IMG/VR virus record: IMGVR_UViG_2531839662_000008
Location: 1 to 6,607 of that record
Length of the DNA stretch: 6,607 bases
Origin: a virus
Taxonomy: Duplodnaviria; Heunggongvirae; Uroviricota; Caudoviricetes
Direction: 5' to 3' (one strand)
Shown here: in pieces, positions 1 through 6,607 of the stretch
Position numbering within the stretch: position 1 is the stretch's first letter
How the letters are laid out: every line of letters begins with the position of its first letter
Made by a program: the position numbers and the translations under genes
Notes under the pieces: model-generated
Told to the model about the DNA's origin: nothing
Databases searched by the model: none
Seen by the model: the letters and a program-made list of their open reading frames with translations, nothing else

Positions 1-1
1 A

Positions 2-646
2 GGGCAAATAAATGAGTTGGTGACTCCGTTGCCGTATGTTTCCAGCGTAAGGAATCTAACAACATCTAATTCTGGTGCTGATACAGAGTCAGATGATAAT
101 TATGCTGAAAGAATAAAACTGTCGCCGGAAAAACTGTCTACAGCAGGGCCGGAGGATTCTTATAAATATTGGACAAGAACAGCCAATCAGAATATAAAAG
201 ATGTGAATGTATATACACCATCGCCCGGAACTGTAGAAATCCGTTCTTTGTTAGAGAACGGAGATATACCTTCTGATGAACTATTGGAGCAGATAAATAG
301 CGTTCTCTCTGCAACTAATATTCGACCATTCACAGATAAAGTTCTTGTTAAGAAACCAGAGAGCATTGAATACGATATAATAATTAAATACTGGATTAAC
401 TCATCGGACAAAAACAGAACAACATTAATTCAAAGTGAGGTTGAGAAAGCTATTGATGAGTATAAACAATGGCAACGTTCGGTTATGGGAAGAGATATAA
501 ATCCAGATGAAATTATTCAACGTTTAAAAAATGCCGGGGCTAAAAGATTAGAAATATCAAGTCCTGTATTTACTGTGGTTGGAGAGACGCAGGTCGCCAG
601 AGAGAGAAATGTAAATTGCCAGTATGCGGGGTTAGAGGATGGCTGA
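2..646 (+). CDS. Baseplate assembly protein J-like (P2 gpJ / Mu gp47 family), C-terminal part; 5' end lies outside the window
   Basis: Reading frame is open from the window start (no stop upstream of the listed start at 17). Translation contains the acidic 'ESDDNYAERI' motif typical of baseplate-J proteins. Stop overlaps the start of the next gene (639 ATG), and the next gene is gpI-like, giving the conserved J-I-fibre order. AT-rich codon usage. Confidence 0.7.
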   Translation, partial: GQINELVTPLPYVSSVRNLTTSNSGADTESDDNYAERIKLSPEKLSTAGPEDSYKYWTRTANQNIKDVNVYTPSPGTVEIRSLLENGDIPSDELLEQINSVLSATNIRPFTDKVLVKKPESIEYDIIIKYWINSSDKNRTTLIQSEVEKAIDEYKQWQRSVMGRDINPDEIIQRLKNAGAKRLEISSPVFTVVGETQVARERNVNCQYAGLEDG

Positions 647-1220
647 TATCTTTAATGTTAGCTTGTTGGATGTTTTACCTCCTAACTTAGCTAGAGATCC
701 CAACGTGATAGCTATGTCGAAAGCTATCGATGATGAACTACAAGCAATTAACAATTTAATATATAAGACAGAAATATATAGCGTTGTTGATAACCTGGAT
801 TCAGTTGTTCTCGATCATTTAGCTTGGCAATGGAATGCTGATACATGGAGGGATAGTTGGCCTGTATCGTTAAAGCGTTCTGTTTTTAAATCAATAATAC
901 GAACAAAGCGAATAAAGGGTACAAGGGCAGCGGTTGAAGATGTAGTAAATAGCTTGGGTGGAGAGGTAAACATAACAGAATGGTTTGAAACATCACCACC
1001 TGGCGAACCATATACAGCCTCAATTGTTGCTTCGATTAACTCTTTTGATGGTGCCGTTCCTTCGAAAGAGATGTTGGAAGATACGTTAAGAAGTATCAAG
1101 AGCGCAAAGTCGGCAAGAACATTATTTACATTTTCGCAAGCAGCCAATGTTTCTGGTGGTGTCGGTATTGTTGGTGCTTGTCAGCCTGTGTCTTATGTAC
1201 GATTAATTGGCGAGTGCTAA
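639..1220 (+). CDS. Phage tail protein I-like (P2 gpI family)
   Basis: 193-aa ORF whose start is translationally coupled to the J-like gene. The segment 'LDHLAWQWNADTWRDSWPVSLKRSV...GTRAAVEDVVNSLGGEVNITEWFETSPPGEPYT' matches my recollection of the gpI pattern (W..W, KR.V, G...A, NVTEW). Positioned between the J-like gene and the fibre gene. Confidence 0.7.
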   Translation: MADIFNVSLLDVLPPNLARDPNVIAMSKAIDDELQAINNLIYKTEIYSVVDNLDSVVLDHLAWQWNADTWRDSWPVSLKRSVFKSIIRTKRIKGTRAAVEDVVNSLGGEVNITEWFETSPPGEPYTASIVASINSFDGAVPSKEMLEDTLRSIKSAKSARTLFTFSQAANVSGGVGIVGACQPVSYVRLIGEC

Positions 1221-1250
1221 TTCGCAATTTGTTAATTCAAGGAATTAAGC

Positions 1251-2147
1251 GTGAGTAAATTATTATTTACGATGACTGACGCCGGGCGTCAGGAGCTGGT
1301 TAATGCCAACAAAACAGGAACAAATAAAGTTGAGATTGTTTCTGTTGGTTTAGGTAGTAGATATTATGTCACGTCAACTTCACAAACAAATATAACAAAC
1401 GAAATAAAACGACTTACCACAATAGGTGGCAAAGTTGTTTCCCCTGATACAATTCATGTAACAGCGAAGGATGATAGTAAAGATGAGTATGTTGTCCATA
1501 CAATAGGATTGTATACGAATAAGGGTACGTTGTTTGCTGTATACTCACAAGAACAAGCAATAATAAATAAAGCATCATCTACTATCGCTTTAATATCAAG
1601 TGATATAGCAATTAAAACTCTTGATACTAAAAATATTACATTTGGTGATATTGAGTTTATTAATCCTCCCGCGACCGAAACTGTTGTTGGGGTTGCAAGA
1701 TTTGCCAATGAACAAGAAATTGATGACGGTACAGATGATTCCCTTGCTGTTTCAGCAAAGCGGCTTAAGCAAGCCATTGTGAAACATGAACAATCACGTA
1801 ATCATCCTGATGCAACTTTAACCTCAAAAGGCTTTGTTCAACTTAGCAGCGCCACCAATAGCACGTCTGAAACGCTTGCTGCGACGCCTAAGGCTGTTAA
1901 GGCAGCATATGACCTGGCTAATGGCAAATACACCGCACAGGACGCTACCACAGCGCGAAAAGGGATTGTTCAGCTCAGTAGTGCCACCAACAGCACGTCT
2001 GAAACGCTAGCAGCAACACCAAAGGCTGTTAAGGCAGCGTATGATCTTGCGGCCGGAAAGGCTCCGTCCAATCACACGCATTCGTGGGAGCAGATAACAA
2101 ATGTGCCTGTAGCTTCACTGACTGTAAGGGGAATAACTGGGGTCTGA
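1251..2147 (+). pseudogene. Tail fibre protein, N-terminal part only; 3' end replaced by a Tn3-family inverted repeat at 2139 (the stop at 2145-2147 lies inside the repeat)
   Basis: GTG start at 1251 with AAGGA 6 nt upstream. N-terminal tail-collar/fibre attachment-type domain, then 'HEQSRNHPDATLTSKGFVQLSSATNSTSETLAATPKAVKAAYDLANGKYTAQDATTARKG' fibre repeats (two copies), then 'APSNHTHSWEQITNVP'. The last codons (LTVRGITGV*) are encoded by the junction and the Tn3 repeat GGGGTCTGA, so the native C-terminus is missing. Confidence 0.75.
1827..2050 (+). repeat. Tandem 132-bp (44-codon) phage tail-fibre repeats, about 1.7 copies
   Basis: 'aaaggctttgttcaacttagcagcgccaccaatagcacgtctgaaacg...' at 1827 recurs as 'aaagggattgttcagctcagtagtgccaccaacagcacgtctgaaacg...' at 1959. 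Encoded peptide repeat is KG[FI]VQLSSATNSTSETLAATPKAVKAAYDLA. Confidence 0.85.
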
Positions 2148-2176
2148 CGCTCAGTGGAACGAAAACTCACGTTAAG
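2139..2176 (+). repeat. Tn3-family (Tn1/Tn2/Tn3-type) 38-bp terminal inverted repeat, outer end at 2139
   Basis: Sequence GGGGTCTGACGCTCAGTGGAACGAAAACTCACGTTAAG matches the Tn3 terminal repeat as I recall it. It is not followed by the bla-proximal interior (GGATTTTGGTCATGAG), so this is probably the tnpA-proximal end. Confidence 0.8.
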
Positions 2177-2223
2177 CAACGTTTTCTGCCTCTGACGCCT
2201 CTTTTAATGGTCTCAGATGTCCT
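2139..2223 (-). mobile_element. Remnant of a Tn3-family transposon (terminal repeat plus about 47 bp of interior, probably the 3' end of tnpA), truncated by IS26
   Basis: Terminal repeat at 2139..2176 followed by 47 bp that run straight into the IS26 left repeat at 2224. A minus-strand reading frame terminates at 2167..2169 inside the repeat, as expected for the tnpA end of Tn3-family elements; that frame continues as antisense into IS26, so only the 2177..2223 part could be tnpA-derived. Confidence 0.65.
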
Positions 2224-3043
2224 GGCACTGTTGCAAATAGTCGGTGGTGATAAACTTATCATCCCCTTTTGCTGATGGAGCTGCACATGAACCCATTCAA
2301 AGGCCGGCATTTTCAGCGTGACATCATTCTGTGGGCCGTACGCTGGTACTGCAAATACGGCATCAGTTACCGTGAGCTGCAGGAGATGCTGGCTGAACGC
2401 GGAGTGAATGTCGATCACTCCACGATTTACCGCTGGGCTCAGCGTTATGCGCCTGAAATGGAAAAACGGCTGCGCTGGTACTGGCGTAACCCTTCCGATC
2501 TTTGCCCGTGGCACATGGATGAAACCTACGTGAAGGTCAATGGCCGCTGGGCGTATCTGTACCGGGCCGTCGACAGCCGGGGCCGCACTGTCGATTTTTA
2601 TCTCTCCTCCCGTCGTAACAGCAAAGCTGCATACCGGTTTCTGGGTAAAATCCTCAACAACGTGAAGAAGTGGCAGATCCCGCGATTCATCAACACGGAT
2701 AAAGCGCCCGCCTATGGTCGCGCGCTTGCTCTGCTCAAACGCGAAGGCCGGTGCCCGTCTGACGTTGAACACCGACAGATTAAGTACCGGAACAACGTGA
2801 TTGAATGCGATCATGGCAAACTGAAACGGATAATCGGCGCCACGCTGGGATTTAAATCCATGAAGACGGCTTACGCCACCATCAAAGGTATTGAGGTGAT
2901 GCGTGCACTACGCAAAGGCCAGGCCTCAGCATTTTATTATGGTGATCCCCTGGGCGAAATGCGCCTGGTAAGCAGAGTTTTTGAAATGTAAGGCCTTTGA
3001 ATAAGACAAAAGGCTGCCTCATCGCTAACTTTGCAACAGTGCC
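2224..3043 (+). mobile_element. IS26 (IS6 family), complete 820-bp copy
   Basis: 14-bp terminal inverted repeats GGCACTGTTGCAAA at 2224..2237 and TTTGCAACAGTGCC at 3030..3043. Internal ORF is the canonical Tnp26 sequence (MNPFKGRHFQRDIILWAVRWYCKYGISYRELQEMLAERGVNVDHSTIYRW...). The flanking 8-mers differ (GATGTCCT vs TTATTGCG), so there is no target-site duplication. Confidence 0.95.
2287..2991 (+). CDS. tnp26: IS26 transposase Tnp26 (234 aa)
   Basis: Translation from ATG 2287 begins MNPFKGRHFQRDIILWAVRW and ends ...GEMRLVSRVFEM, the IS26 transposase with its DDE motif. The listed ORF start at 2269 (MLMELH...) is an upstream in-frame extension; the canonical start is 2287. Confidence 0.93.
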   Translation: MNPFKGRHFQRDIILWAVRWYCKYGISYRELQEMLAERGVNVDHSTIYRWAQRYAPEMEKRLRWYWRNPSDLCPWHMDETYVKVNGRWAYLYRAVDSRGRTVDFYLSSRRNSKAAYRFLGKILNNVKKWQIPRFINTDKAPAYGRALALLKREGRCPSDVEHRQIKYRNNVIECDHGKLKRIIGATLGFKSMKTAYATIKGIEVMRALRKGQASAFYYGDPLGEMRLVSRVFEM

Positions 3044-5108
3044 TTATTGCGGAGCTGGTTATTCCTCCTGAAACGGGCGGATTCTGGATCCGGGAAATTG
3101 GTGTATTTGATGAGCACGGCGATTTAATCGCGGTGGGCAATACTGCCGAAAGTTACAAGCCAGCCGTTGCTGAAGGGTCCGGTCGTGCACAAACATTTCG
3201 CACCATTCTGACCGTATCCAGCACGGCCACCGTGGCGCTTACCGTGGATAACACCATGGTGATGGCCACAGTGGATTACGTGGATGACAAACTGAAAGAG
3301 CATGAACAGTCACGACGTCACCCGGACGCCTCGCTGACCGCAAAAGGCTTTGTTCAACTCAGTAGCGCCACTAACAGCGTGTCTGAAACGCAGGCTGCAA
3401 CGCCGAAAGCGGTTAAGGCCGCATATGACCTGGCTAACGGAAAATATACCGCTCAGGACGCCACGACGGCACGAAAAGGCCTTGTCCAGCTCAGTAGCGC
3501 CACCAACAGCACGTCTGAAACGCAGGCTGCAACGCCGAAAGCAGTAAAGGCCGCGTATGACCTTGCTAACGCAAAATATACCGCTCAGGACGCCACGACG
3601 GCACAAAAAGGGATAGTCCAGCTCAGTAGTGCCACCAACAGCACGTCTGAAACACTGGCCGCGACATCGAAAGCGGTTAAGGCGGTAATGGATGAAACGA
3701 ACAAGAAAGCGCCCTTAAACAGTCCTGCGTTGACCGGAACGCCAACAACGCCAACTGCGCGACAGGGAACGAATAATACCCAAATCGCAAGCACGGCTTT
3801 CGTTATGGCTGCGATTGCCGCCCTTGTAGATTCGTCACCTGACGCACTGAATACGCTGAACGAGTTAGCGGCGGCGCTGGGAAACGACCCGAATTTTGCG
3901 ACCACCATGACTAACGCGCTTGCGGGTAAGCAACCGAAAGATGCCACCCTGACGGTGCTGGCCGGGCTTGCTACTGCGGCAGACAAGTTTCCGTATTTTA
4001 CGGGGAATGATGTCGCCAGCCTGGCAACCCTGACAAAAGTCGGGCGGGATATTCTTGCGAAATCGACCGTTGCTGCCGTTATCGAATACCTCGGTTTACA
4101 GGAAACGGTAAACAGGGCTGGTAACGCCGTGCAAAAAAATGGCGATACCTTGTCCGGTGGGCTTACTTTTGAAAACGACTCAATCCTTGCCTGGATTCGA
4201 AATACTGACTGGGCAAAGATTGGTTTTAAAAATGATGCCGATAGCGATACTGATTCATACATGTGGTTTGAAACAGGCGACAACGGCAATGAATATTTCA
4301 AATGGAGAAGCAAACAAAGCACCACAACAAAAGACCTGATGAATCTTAAATGGGATGCTTTGTCTGTTCTTGTTAAAGCCCTTTTCAGCAGTGAAGTAAA
4401 AATATCGACAGTCAATGCACTGAGGATATTTAATTCATCTTTTGGTGCCATTTTTCGCCGTTCTGAAGAATGCCTGCATATCATCCCTACACGAGAGAAT
4501 GAGGGGGAAAATGGCGATATAGGGCCGCTACGCCCCTTTACGCTTAATCTCAGAACTGGTCGCATAAATATGGGGCATGGTCTGGATGTTACAGGAGATA
4601 TAACAACTAACGCATGGGTGTACGCAAACCGCTTGCAATTAACAGCAGCACAGGCATGTGGATTCATATGCGTGACCAGAATGTTATTTTTGGACGTAAT
4701 GCGGTATCCACTGATGGTGCTCAGGCTTTGCTCCGTCAGGACCATGCCGACCGCAAATTTATGATTGGCGGTCTGGGAAATAAGCAATTTGGCATCTACA
4801 TGATTAATAACTCAAGGACAGCCAATGGCACCGATGGTCAGGCGTACATGGACAATAACGGTAACTGGCTTTGCGGTGCGCAAATTATTCCCGGAAATTA
4901 TGGCAATTTTGACTCACGCTATGTGAGAGATGTCCGACTTGGCACACGTGTTGTTCAATTGATGGCGCGTGGAGGGCGTTATGAAATAGCCGGACACGCA
5001 CTTACCGGATTAAGGATTATTGGTGAAGTTGATGGCGATGATGAAGCTATCTTCAGGCCGATACAAAAATACATCAATGGCATATGGTATAACGTCGCAC
5101 AGGTGTAA
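3044..5108 (+). pseudogene. Tail fibre protein (P2 gpH / P1-Mu S type), 5'-truncated by IS26 and apparently frameshifted (-1) near 4630
   Basis: Coding sequence starts mid-gene directly at the IS26 right end ('..IAELVIPPETGGFWIREIGVFDEHGDLIAVGNTAESYKPAVAEGSGR..' is an internal stretch of gpH-type N-terminal domains). Then three fibre repeats, then 'TAFVMAAIAALVDSSPDALNTLNELAAALGNDPNFATTMTNALAGKQPKDATLTVLAGLATAADKFPYFTGN'. Frame 1 is protein-like up to about 4632 (..NAWVYANR), after which only frame 3 is protein-like (LAINSSTGMWIHMRDQNVIFGRNAV...IPGNYGNFDSRYVRDVRLGTRVVQ...RPIQKYINGIWYNVAQV*), implying a 1-nt deletion. The listed ORF's TTG start at 3031 lies inside IS26 and is not a real start. 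Confidence 0.75.
3343..3690 (+). repeat. Tandem 132-bp tail-fibre repeats, about 2.6 copies, homologous to those at 1827..2050
   Basis: Units begin at 3343, 3475 and 3607 ('aaaggctttgttcaactcagtagcgcc', 'aaaggccttgtccagctcagtagcgcc', 'aaagggatagtccagctcagtagtgcc'). A 35-nt stretch 3619..3653 is identical to 1971..2005. Confidence 0.85.
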
Positions 5109-5111
5109 ATT

Positions 5112-5638
5112 ATGCAGCATTTAAAAAATATTAAGTCTGGAAATCCAAAAACAAAAGAACAATATCAGCTAACAAAGAATTTTGATGTTATCTGGTTATG
5201 GTCCGAAGACGGAAAAAACTGGTATGAGGAAGTGAAAAACTTTCAGCCAGACACAATAAAGATGTTTACGATGCAAATAATATTATTGTCGCCATCACCA
5301 AAGATGCCTCCACGCTTAACCCTGAAGGTTATAGCGTCGTTGAGGTTCCTGATATTACAGCTAATCGTCGTGCTGATGATTCCGGTAAGTGGATGTTTAA
5401 GGACGGAGCTGTGGTTAAACGGATTTATACGGCAGACGAGCAACAACAACAGGCCGAATCACAAAAGGCCGCGTTACTTTCCGAAGCAGAAAACGTTATT
5501 CAGCCACTGGAACGCGCTGTCAGGCTGAATATGGCGACGGATGAGGAACGCGCACGACTGGAGTCATGGGAACGCTATAGTGTTCTGGTCAGCCGTGTGG
5601 ATACGGCAAATCCTGAATGGCCACAAAAGCCTGAATAA
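5112..5638 (+). pseudogene. Tail-fibre assembly chaperone (lambda Tfa / P2 gpG / Mu U family) with an apparent 1-nt deletion at about 5264
   Basis: N-terminus [51 protein letters not shown] closely parallels the intact minus-strand paralogue ([54 protein letters not shown]...). After codon 51 the frame becomes junk; shifting by -1 at 5264 gives [65 protein letters not shown]...PEWPQKPE*, which runs to the stop at 5638. ATG at 5112 lies 3 nt after the fibre stop. Confidence 0.75.
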
Positions 5639-5643
5639 AAATT

Positions 5644-5663
5644 AAGGCCCGATAGCGGGCCTT
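5644..5663. terminator. Bidirectional intrinsic-terminator-like hairpin between the convergent chaperone genes
   Basis: Perfect 8-bp stem AAGGCCCG / CGGGCCTT with a 4-nt loop ATAG. It sits in the 28-bp gap between the stop at 5638 (plus) and the stop at 5667..5669 (minus), with an A-rich tract on one side (TAAAAATT) and a T-rich tract on the other (TTGTTTCATT). Confidence 0.6.
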
Positions 5664-5666
5664 GTT

Positions 5667-6200
5667 TCATTCTGGTTGTTCTGGAAACGTTACTGGCAGG
5701 CTGGAGGTGTCTGTGGATTCGACCTTCTGCGCATAGAGCATCCACTCGGTTAATTTTTGTTTATTCTCGTCGGGAATGATACCCAGCCGTAGCTGTGAGT
5801 CCCATAGCTGGGTTTTATCCCTGACAAGTTGCAACAGGCTTTGCTTTTCATTCTCTGCCTGCTGCCTCTGTTCCTCCTCGGTATAAGTTCGCTTTATCAC
5901 TACGCCATCTTTGAACATCCATTTACCCGAAATATCAGCCCGGCGATTTGCTGTAATATCAGGTAATTCAACGACGCTTGCGCCTTCCGGATTAATTGCT
6001 GAAACATCCTTTTCAATACAAATAATAACGCCGTTATGGTCATAGACCATTTTCAAAGTGTCTGGCTGGAAATTCTTTTGTTCCTCATACCAGTTTTTTC
6101 CATCATCTGAATAAAGCCATTTGATGTTAAATTGCTTTGTTAGCTGGTATTGCTCTTTTGTTTTAGGGTTGCCAGCAGTAATGTTTTTTAAGTGCATCAT
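5667..6200 (-). CDS. Tail-fibre assembly chaperone, alternative copy (Tfa' / U'-like), intact
   Basis: 177-aa ORF. N-terminal 50 aa are highly similar to the plus-strand chaperone, and the C-terminal half is divergent. Start ATG lies 2 nt after the stop of the upstream minus-strand fibre-tip ORF (translational coupling). Confidence 0.8.
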   Translation of the reverse strand: MMHLKNITAGNPKTKEQYQLTKQFNIKWLYSDDGKNWYEEQKNFQPDTLKMVYDHNGVIICIEKDVSAINPEGASVVELPDITANRRADISGKWMFKDGVVIKRTYTEEEQRQQAENEKQSLLQLVRDKTQLWDSQLRLGIIPDENKQKLTEWMLYAQKVESTDTSSLPVTFPEQPE

Positions 6201-6202
6201 CG

Positions 6203-6607
6203 TTAAATACTCCCCGCGTTATACCACGTCCCATTAATGCAATACTGAATTGGCCTTGCCTGAGTTGTATCAATTAATTCATCACGGTTTCCGTTAACTG
6301 AACCCGTAACGACATAACCTGACCTGTCAGACCAGCCGGGGCCATTCCATGTCTGAACAGATGACAGACCGCCAAGGCGAATACCTGTAATAAACCTTGA
6401 GTTACATTCTGCCTGCGTGTATGCACCAACATCTCCCGCAGAGGGTTTGCGGGTCGTGGTGTAAAACTCTGACCAGTTAGCCTCAAATCCATAACCATCA
6501 CGCGCTGAACGATAAAAAATACCGCCGTTCCTGTAATTCACGCGGAACTGTACAGCAGGGCAGCTCCCCGTATTCATATTGAAGTGGAGGATTAATGTCG
6601 ATGCGCC
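6203..6607 (-). CDS. Alternative tail-fibre C-terminal (receptor-binding tip) segment, partial; continues past the right edge of the window
   Basis: Minus-strand frame is open to the window edge (…GASTLILHFNMNTGSC…), so the listed Met at 6577 is internal. The C-terminal end '...RPIQYCINGTWYNAGSI*' parallels the plus-strand fibre end 'RPIQKYINGIWYNVAQV*'; the rest is divergent. Immediately followed by its own chaperone. Confidence 0.7.
   Translation of the reverse strand, partial: GASTLILHFNMNTGSCPAVQFRVNYRNGGIFYRSARDGYGFEANWSEFYTTTRKPSAGDVGAYTQAECNSRFITGIRLGGLSSVQTWNGPGWSDRSGYVVTGSVNGNRDELIDTTQARPIQYCINGTWYNAGSI

Follow-up and report, generated by a model that had tools for sequence, protein, structure and literature searches.

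Two single-base frameshifts, one in the tip of a tail-fibre gene and one in the gene of its assembly chaperone, raise the question whether a phage element has lost the use of one orientation of an inversion switch, or whether the breaks reflect something less specific. Both lie on the plus strand of the window, as the whole stretch of 6,607 nucleotides analysed here is called. In the initial annotation they had been put down either to errors of assembly or to decay of the plus-oriented cassette in an element that is locked in, or selected for, the other orientation.

Composition of the contig

The window is identical to AFAB02000093.1, a contig of 6,607 bases in total from the draft assembly GCA_000194535.2. 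Three parts can be distinguished in it: a phage-plasmid part (1-2138), a Tn3-type transposon end with IS26 (2139-3043) and a P88-like part (3044-6607). Judged by its sequence, the window joins two different phage fibre genes via IS26 and the Tn3-type end.

The E. coli plasmid pFDN11_2 (~48 kb) matches positions 1-2138 at 100% identity, and the identity stops at 2138. All genes of this part are on the plus strand. The 3' part of the baseplate J gene of the ~48-kb phage-plasmid (1..646; Pfam Baseplate_J, E 2.3e-38) runs off the contig start; it is followed by an intact gene for a P2 gpI-like tail protein (639..1220; Pfam Tail_P2_I, E 3.9e-27) and by the 5' part of the phage-plasmid's own tail-fibre gene (1251..2138; assigned by the pFDN11_2 identity and Pfam Phage_fiber_2), which is cut by the transposon end. 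The first 296 codons of this fibre gene are kept and the reading frame continues to a stop at 2147. An exact product look-up of the listed ORF 1272-2147 gave no match, the gene call on record being 1251-2147. The 298-aa product of the cut gene is also recorded in a second draft assembly, NOEZ01000041.1 (GCA_002516985.1; positions 8751-10965 of the fetched locus), which is 100% identical over window 1-2215. There, too, the transposon has entered the fibre gene at this very point, and the contig stops within the remnant, 8 bases short of the place of IS26. Since NOEZ01000041.1 has the same junction, the left junction between the fibre gene and the Tn3-type end has been seen twice independently.

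The transposon end sits exactly where the homology of the phage-plasmid fibre to the P88-like fibre starts (window 2138/2139 and 3619). In pFDN11_2, base 8138, the equivalent of window 2138, is directly followed by a 98%-identical counterpart of window 3619-4116 (fetched locus 8138/8139). The agreement of junction and homology start may be a coincidence at a repeated QLSSATNS motif, or it may be a trace of recombination.

The terminal 85 bases of a Tn3-family transposon (2139..2223) are identical at 85/85 positions to a stretch of pKSH203-qnrS that forms the end of a Tn3-like element, next to the gene of its transposase, and the start of this remnant is presumably the Tn3 terminal inverted repeat. 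Next to it stands a complete IS26 of 820 bases on the plus strand (2224..3043; Pfam DDE_Tnp_IS240), 819/820 identical to the annotated IS26, with terminal inverted repeats and a gene (2287-2991) for a 234-aa DDE transposase. The ends of the element, read directly from the sequence, are GGCACTGTTGCAAA and TTTGCAACAGTGCC. Its sole difference, C for T at 2438, is a rare substitution by which the transposase has Ala instead of Val. This exact variant of the protein is recorded on only one other contig, from a metagenome, in which the whole 820-base IS26 is identical; its neighbour there we take to be the aph(3')-Ia kanamycin-resistance gene. The substitution at 2438 was considered as a sign of poor consensus and this was rejected, since the identical 820-base element occurs in that unrelated metagenome contig.

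The left flank of IS26 is the Tn3-type remnant in the phage-plasmid fibre gene and the right flank is the prophage fibre gene. In having a full 820-base IS26 with unrelated flanks, the window resembles the IS26 disruptions and replicon fusions of Enterobacteriaceae. Unrelated DNA on the two sides of IS26 is the typical leftover of cointegrate formation or of an adjacent rearrangement, and IS26 and Tn3-family structures are generally regarded as recent. Neither junction is present in 5,426 complete E. coli genomes, and scanning the species-representative genomes for the IS26/fibre junction gave no match. Either IS26 has really fused the two sides, or the assembler has misjoined them across two IS26 copies.

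On the right, phage P88 (KP063541; Xuanwuvirus, P2-like) aligns at 99.4% identity over window 3041-6607. The constant part (Sc) of a P88-type tail-fibre gene occupies 3044..4091 on the plus strand, as assigned by the P88 alignment and Pfam Phage_tail_fib. It begins inside codon 77 and has no start codon: the alignment starts at 4745 of the fetched P88 locus, in which the fibre CDS starts at 4516. Codons 1-76 are absent, together with the genes that precede the fibre gene in its own phage, IS26 stands in their place, and Phage_tail_fib covers only profile positions 74-149 of 150 in Sc. The fibre fragment contains three Phage_fiber_2 matches (fibre repeats) and one Gp34_trimer match (trimerisation domain) in Pfam. 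A P2 gpH-like fibre, with collar, repeats and C-terminal tip in one frame, is not found, because IS26 has removed the N-terminus and the tip is not in frame with the rest.

Thirteen substitutions relative to P88 are clustered at 3411-3471, inside the second fibre repeat. E. coli TW10828 has just 3 mismatches over all of Sc (3044-4095), which suggests that the cluster is common to it and represents a recombination or gene-conversion patch between tandem fibre repeats and not a set of point mutations. A C-to-T substitution at 3956, which changes Ala to Val in Sc, is private, being absent from 18/18 related loci that cover the position.

The invertible tail-fibre segment

The layout of the P88-like part shows the region to be, at the sequence level, the Sv-U cassette of a Gin/Cin-type invertible tail-fibre segment (Mu-G/P1-C type) from a P88-like (P2-like) prophage. 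The fibre gene consists of a constant part and a variable tip, with the crossover site within the reading frame. The left crossover site (4082..4101), of the gix/cix type, matches the annotated P1 cixR 20-mer at 15/20 bases in a manual count; the reverse-orientation match to pFDN11_2 begins at window 4088. Two opposed cassettes, each consisting of a tip and its own chaperone, are present: Sv-U on the plus strand (4092-5638) and U'-Sv' on the minus strand (5667-6607).

The variable tip Sv (4092..5108, plus strand) is in the expressed position. In the P88 alignment it is continuous with Sc until the first frameshift, by which it is broken, and it differs from P88 only at 4152 and by a missing C. 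The tail-fibre assembly chaperone U (5112..5638, plus strand) is broken at codon 51; its Pfam Caudo_TAP match (E 5.3e-38) was obtained on the repaired protein. Between the convergent chaperone genes lies a G+C-rich hairpin of 9 pairs (5643..5664), terminator-like on both strands. The alternative chaperone U' (5667..6200, minus strand) is intact, has a product identical to that of P88 and contains the Caudo_TAP domain (E 6.2e-36). The chaperone genes form inverted repeats of 153-158 nt at 72-76%. The 3' part of the silent alternative tip Sv' (6203..6607, minus strand) has no stop codon and is open to the contig end; one residue differs from P88 (N for D, base 6478), and this difference is also found in UMNF18.

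The window holds one crossover site and no invertase; the contig ends before the partner site and the invertase. In the fetched P88 locus the inverted partner site is at 8816-8880, ~3 kb downstream, and the invertase is at 8931-9518; in the relatives the invertase has Resolvase and HTH_7 domains. In the intact relatives, inversion of the segment by this serine invertase, between the two inverted crossover sites, joins Sc to one of two alternative receptor-binding tips, each with its own assembly chaperone. Both orientations occur among near-identical relatives with both cassettes intact. For example, P88, UMNF18, U90 and the E110019 chromosome have one orientation, whereas the other is seen in PEC399, in TW10828 and in a 25-kb E110019 record; in one set compared, the split is 5 vs 4 places. 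The E. coli E110019 assembly thus contains the same prophage segment twice, in opposite orientations, and the fibre is annotated as frameshifted in the chromosome copy and is intact in the 25-kb linear 'extrachromosomal' record. This double record is consistent with active inversion or with an induced phage population in the sequenced culture.

The window shares with P88 the gene order, the segment orientation, the tail-fibre gene, the two convergent chaperone genes and the silent tip. Unlike P88, it has IS26, the Tn3-type end and phage-plasmid genes in the place of the first 76 codons and the baseplate genes, it lacks one C and one T, and the invertase end of its segment is beyond the contig. 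The G segment of Mu (Gin) and the C segment of P1 and P7 (Cin) are similar in the Sc/Sv split, in the two opposed Sv-U cassettes and in the crossover site inside the fibre reading frame, which agrees with P1 cixR as given above; the cassette is covered to 82-100% at 89-92% identity in P1, P7, D108 and Mu. In contrast to Mu and P1, the segment of the window is on a P2-like prophage.

Positions and distribution of the frameshifts

Both frameshifts fall inside the predicted invertible part, in the tip and the chaperone that are currently joined to Sc. The alignment with P88 confirmed their presence, since it contains exactly two gaps in 3,567 aligned bases, a missing C (4632) and a missing T (5263), and between 4153 and 6477 these two gaps are the only differences of any kind from P88. 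The positions initially proposed, 4632/4633 and 5263/5264, proved right to within one base.

At the first site (4631..4633, plus strand; codon 606-607 of the P88 fibre) GCT stands where relatives have GCCT. The missing C adjoins window 4632, P88 reading ...AACCGCCTTGC..., and the repair by addition of a C, as suggested in the initial annotation, is borne out. ORF 3031..4764 includes ...TNAWVYANRLQLTAAQ..., and ORF 4614..5108, in the other frame, reads MGVRKPLAINSSTGMW... With the C restored, a fibre fragment of 687 codons is obtained that has 3 residue differences from P88. The frameshift costs the fibre its last ~158 residues, including the host-range region. Residues 716-746 of the P88 fibre (HR2) have been demonstrated by experiment to set the host range of P88 (PMC5285337); the corresponding codons, placed through the P88 alignment at 4959..5051 on the plus strand, are downstream of the frameshift and hence out of frame with Sc.

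At the second site (5262..5264, plus strand) ATG is found instead of the ATTG of the relatives. The missing T adjoins window 5263, where P88 has ...AAGATTGTTTAC... Here the repair proposed earlier, ATGGTT (K-M-V-Y-D), supplied the wrong base: the homologues read ATTGTT (K-I-V-Y-D), and the Met version is that of the paralogous minus-strand chaperone. ORF 5112..5528 holds the start of the chaperone, the remainder being in another frame (ORF 5393..5638). Restoration of the T gives a 175-aa chaperone U identical to that of P88, and only then is the Caudo_TAP domain (PF02413, ~130 residues), at residues 40-175, uninterrupted; as encoded, U loses everything beyond residue 50.

The intact 23-mer of the first site is present in 26/26 related loci and the deleted version in 0/26; for the second site the counts are 17/17 and 0/17. 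Both extra bases are present in 17/17 close relatives aligned. The deleted string of site 1 had no exact match in the viral, genome or metagenome collections, whereas the intact string had 10 matches in the viral collection. For site 2 the scans with the deleted string covered the viral and metagenome collections and gave no exact match; the scan of the genome collection covered site 1 only. Exact product look-ups of the listed ORFs 4614-5108 and 5112-5528 gave no match, the gene calls on record being 3031-4764 and 4761-5108 for the fibre and 5411-5638 for the chaperone. The frameshift-specific products (577, 115 and 75 aa) are recorded only from AFAB02000093.1. Within these collections and loci, both deletions are private to AFAB02000093.1.

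The comparison with homologues, which had been proposed as a check, not only placed the missing bases but also showed that neither site is a natural end or start of the proteins. The breaks would have to be programmed ribosomal frameshifts, or true ends and starts of shorter proteins, in order to be natural, and we found no support for this. The relatives, at 97-99.8% identity, all have uninterrupted frames of 764 aa and 175 aa, the shifted sequence occurs in none of the 26 and 17 related loci, so that a conserved shift site is not seen, and the second break would split the Caudo_TAP domain of the chaperone. A natural origin of this kind is hardly credible.

Single-base frame breaks in tail genes are also on record in other close relatives. 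Near the counterpart of window 6434, TW10828 contains one C too many, which coincides with the annotation of its expressed fibre as two CDSs, and in UMNF18 a tail protein and the tape measure are frameshifted (9554-12859 of the fetched locus).

Origin of the deletions and state of the switch

On a modest balance of probability, both deletions are consensus errors of the draft assembly rather than mutations. The window is a short contig of such an assembly, and the private changes in its P88-like part are 2 indels vs 1 substitution (3956), which is a normal ratio for consensus errors; the natural chance of a 2:1 ratio was estimated at roughly 3-10%, if indels make up 10-20% of mutations. Frameshift flags in the tail genes of other public assemblies (UMNF18, the E110019 chromosome, TW10828) point in the same direction, as does the finding that all related loci are intact at both sites and that the broken products are unique to the contig. 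However, the contig is not generally poor: its left 2,215 bases agree at 100% with those of an independent assembly, and the single IS26 substitution is a real variant found elsewhere. All runs of at least 5 bases in the region (17/17) are intact, although platform errors usually concentrate there, and both lesions are in an already dead gene, where real neutral damage would be tolerated.

Two particular sources of error were considered. A strict homopolymer error is a weak candidate in view of the 17/17 correct long runs. The initial annotation had stressed that both deletions lie in dinucleotide runs; this is true but uninformative, since 48% of the bases of the region are in runs of two or more and the chance of both deletions falling in such runs is about 0.23. 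Mixing of reads with the 94%-similar invertible segment of the phage-plasmids, the family that matches the left part, was not supported either: the first site is in a locally divergent patch of the phage-plasmid paralogue and the second is not, and the contig follows the P88 type at all diagnostic positions.

The same accuracy of the contig wherever it can be checked, and its correct long homopolymers, which are at odds with the usual platform error, speak for real, recent and neutral mutations that are unrelated to the orientation of the segment. According to this explanation, the tail-fibre module would have been freed from selection, with the IS26 cut at codon 77 coming before or after, and two single-base losses by slipped-strand events would then have been fixed in the lineage of the strain. 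IS26 does indeed interrupt the fibre gene, which no longer adjoins its own baseplate genes, and the private substitution at 3956 in Sc indicates some real private divergence in the lineage. Against this, two indels to one substitution is a high proportion for natural change; 4153-6477 holds no substitution relative to P88 and yet two indels; neither deletion was found in any other assembly; and, IS26 and Tn3 structures being recent as stated above, there would have been little time for two neutral events in 1.5 kb. We regard neutral mutation as a serious possibility, though somewhat short of probable. It is improbable that the deletions are real in a more specific sense, as the loss by mutation of one host-range cassette or as the mark of a mismatch-repair-deficient strain. 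In the former case the switch would flip between a working tip and a dead tip, and in the latter single-base deletions would have been left in a recently fused IS26 structure.

Of the two origins offered initially, the assembly error is thus slightly favoured, but decay tied to a locked or selected orientation is unsupported. The latter would require that the plus cassette decays selectively while a lock or selection keeps the segment in the orientation that uses the minus cassette. It is true that both lesions are in the plus cassette and that the visible minus cassette is intact, U' being identical to that of P88 and Sv' open. However, the tip that continues the frame of Sc in the contig is the broken one and not the intact one; therefore the assembled molecule is not in the 'other' orientation. 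Moreover, Sc is cut at codon 77 and has no start, and because neither orientation can make a complete fibre, no selection for the minus cassette is possible. Two hits against none is also not significant for the lengths of the targets (p about 0.19 for the P88-like part to 0.38 for the invertible part only). The parts from which locking could be read, the invertase and the right crossover site, are not in the contig, and the near-identical relatives show both orientations with both cassettes intact. A locked switch is accordingly a far-fetched explanation of the two deletions.

Elements of this kind are already well described, both the invertible tail-fibre segments with their chaperones and the disruptions by IS26, and it is routine to find single-base frame breaks in one draft contig alone. 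The contig, which fuses two phage fibre genes, should itself be checked before it is used. Since IS26 had already interrupted the fibre gene at codon 77, the deletions are uninformative on the switch, and such frame breaks should not serve as evidence on the state of an inversion switch. If the deletions are real, they would simply be two more lesions in an already non-functional fibre gene.
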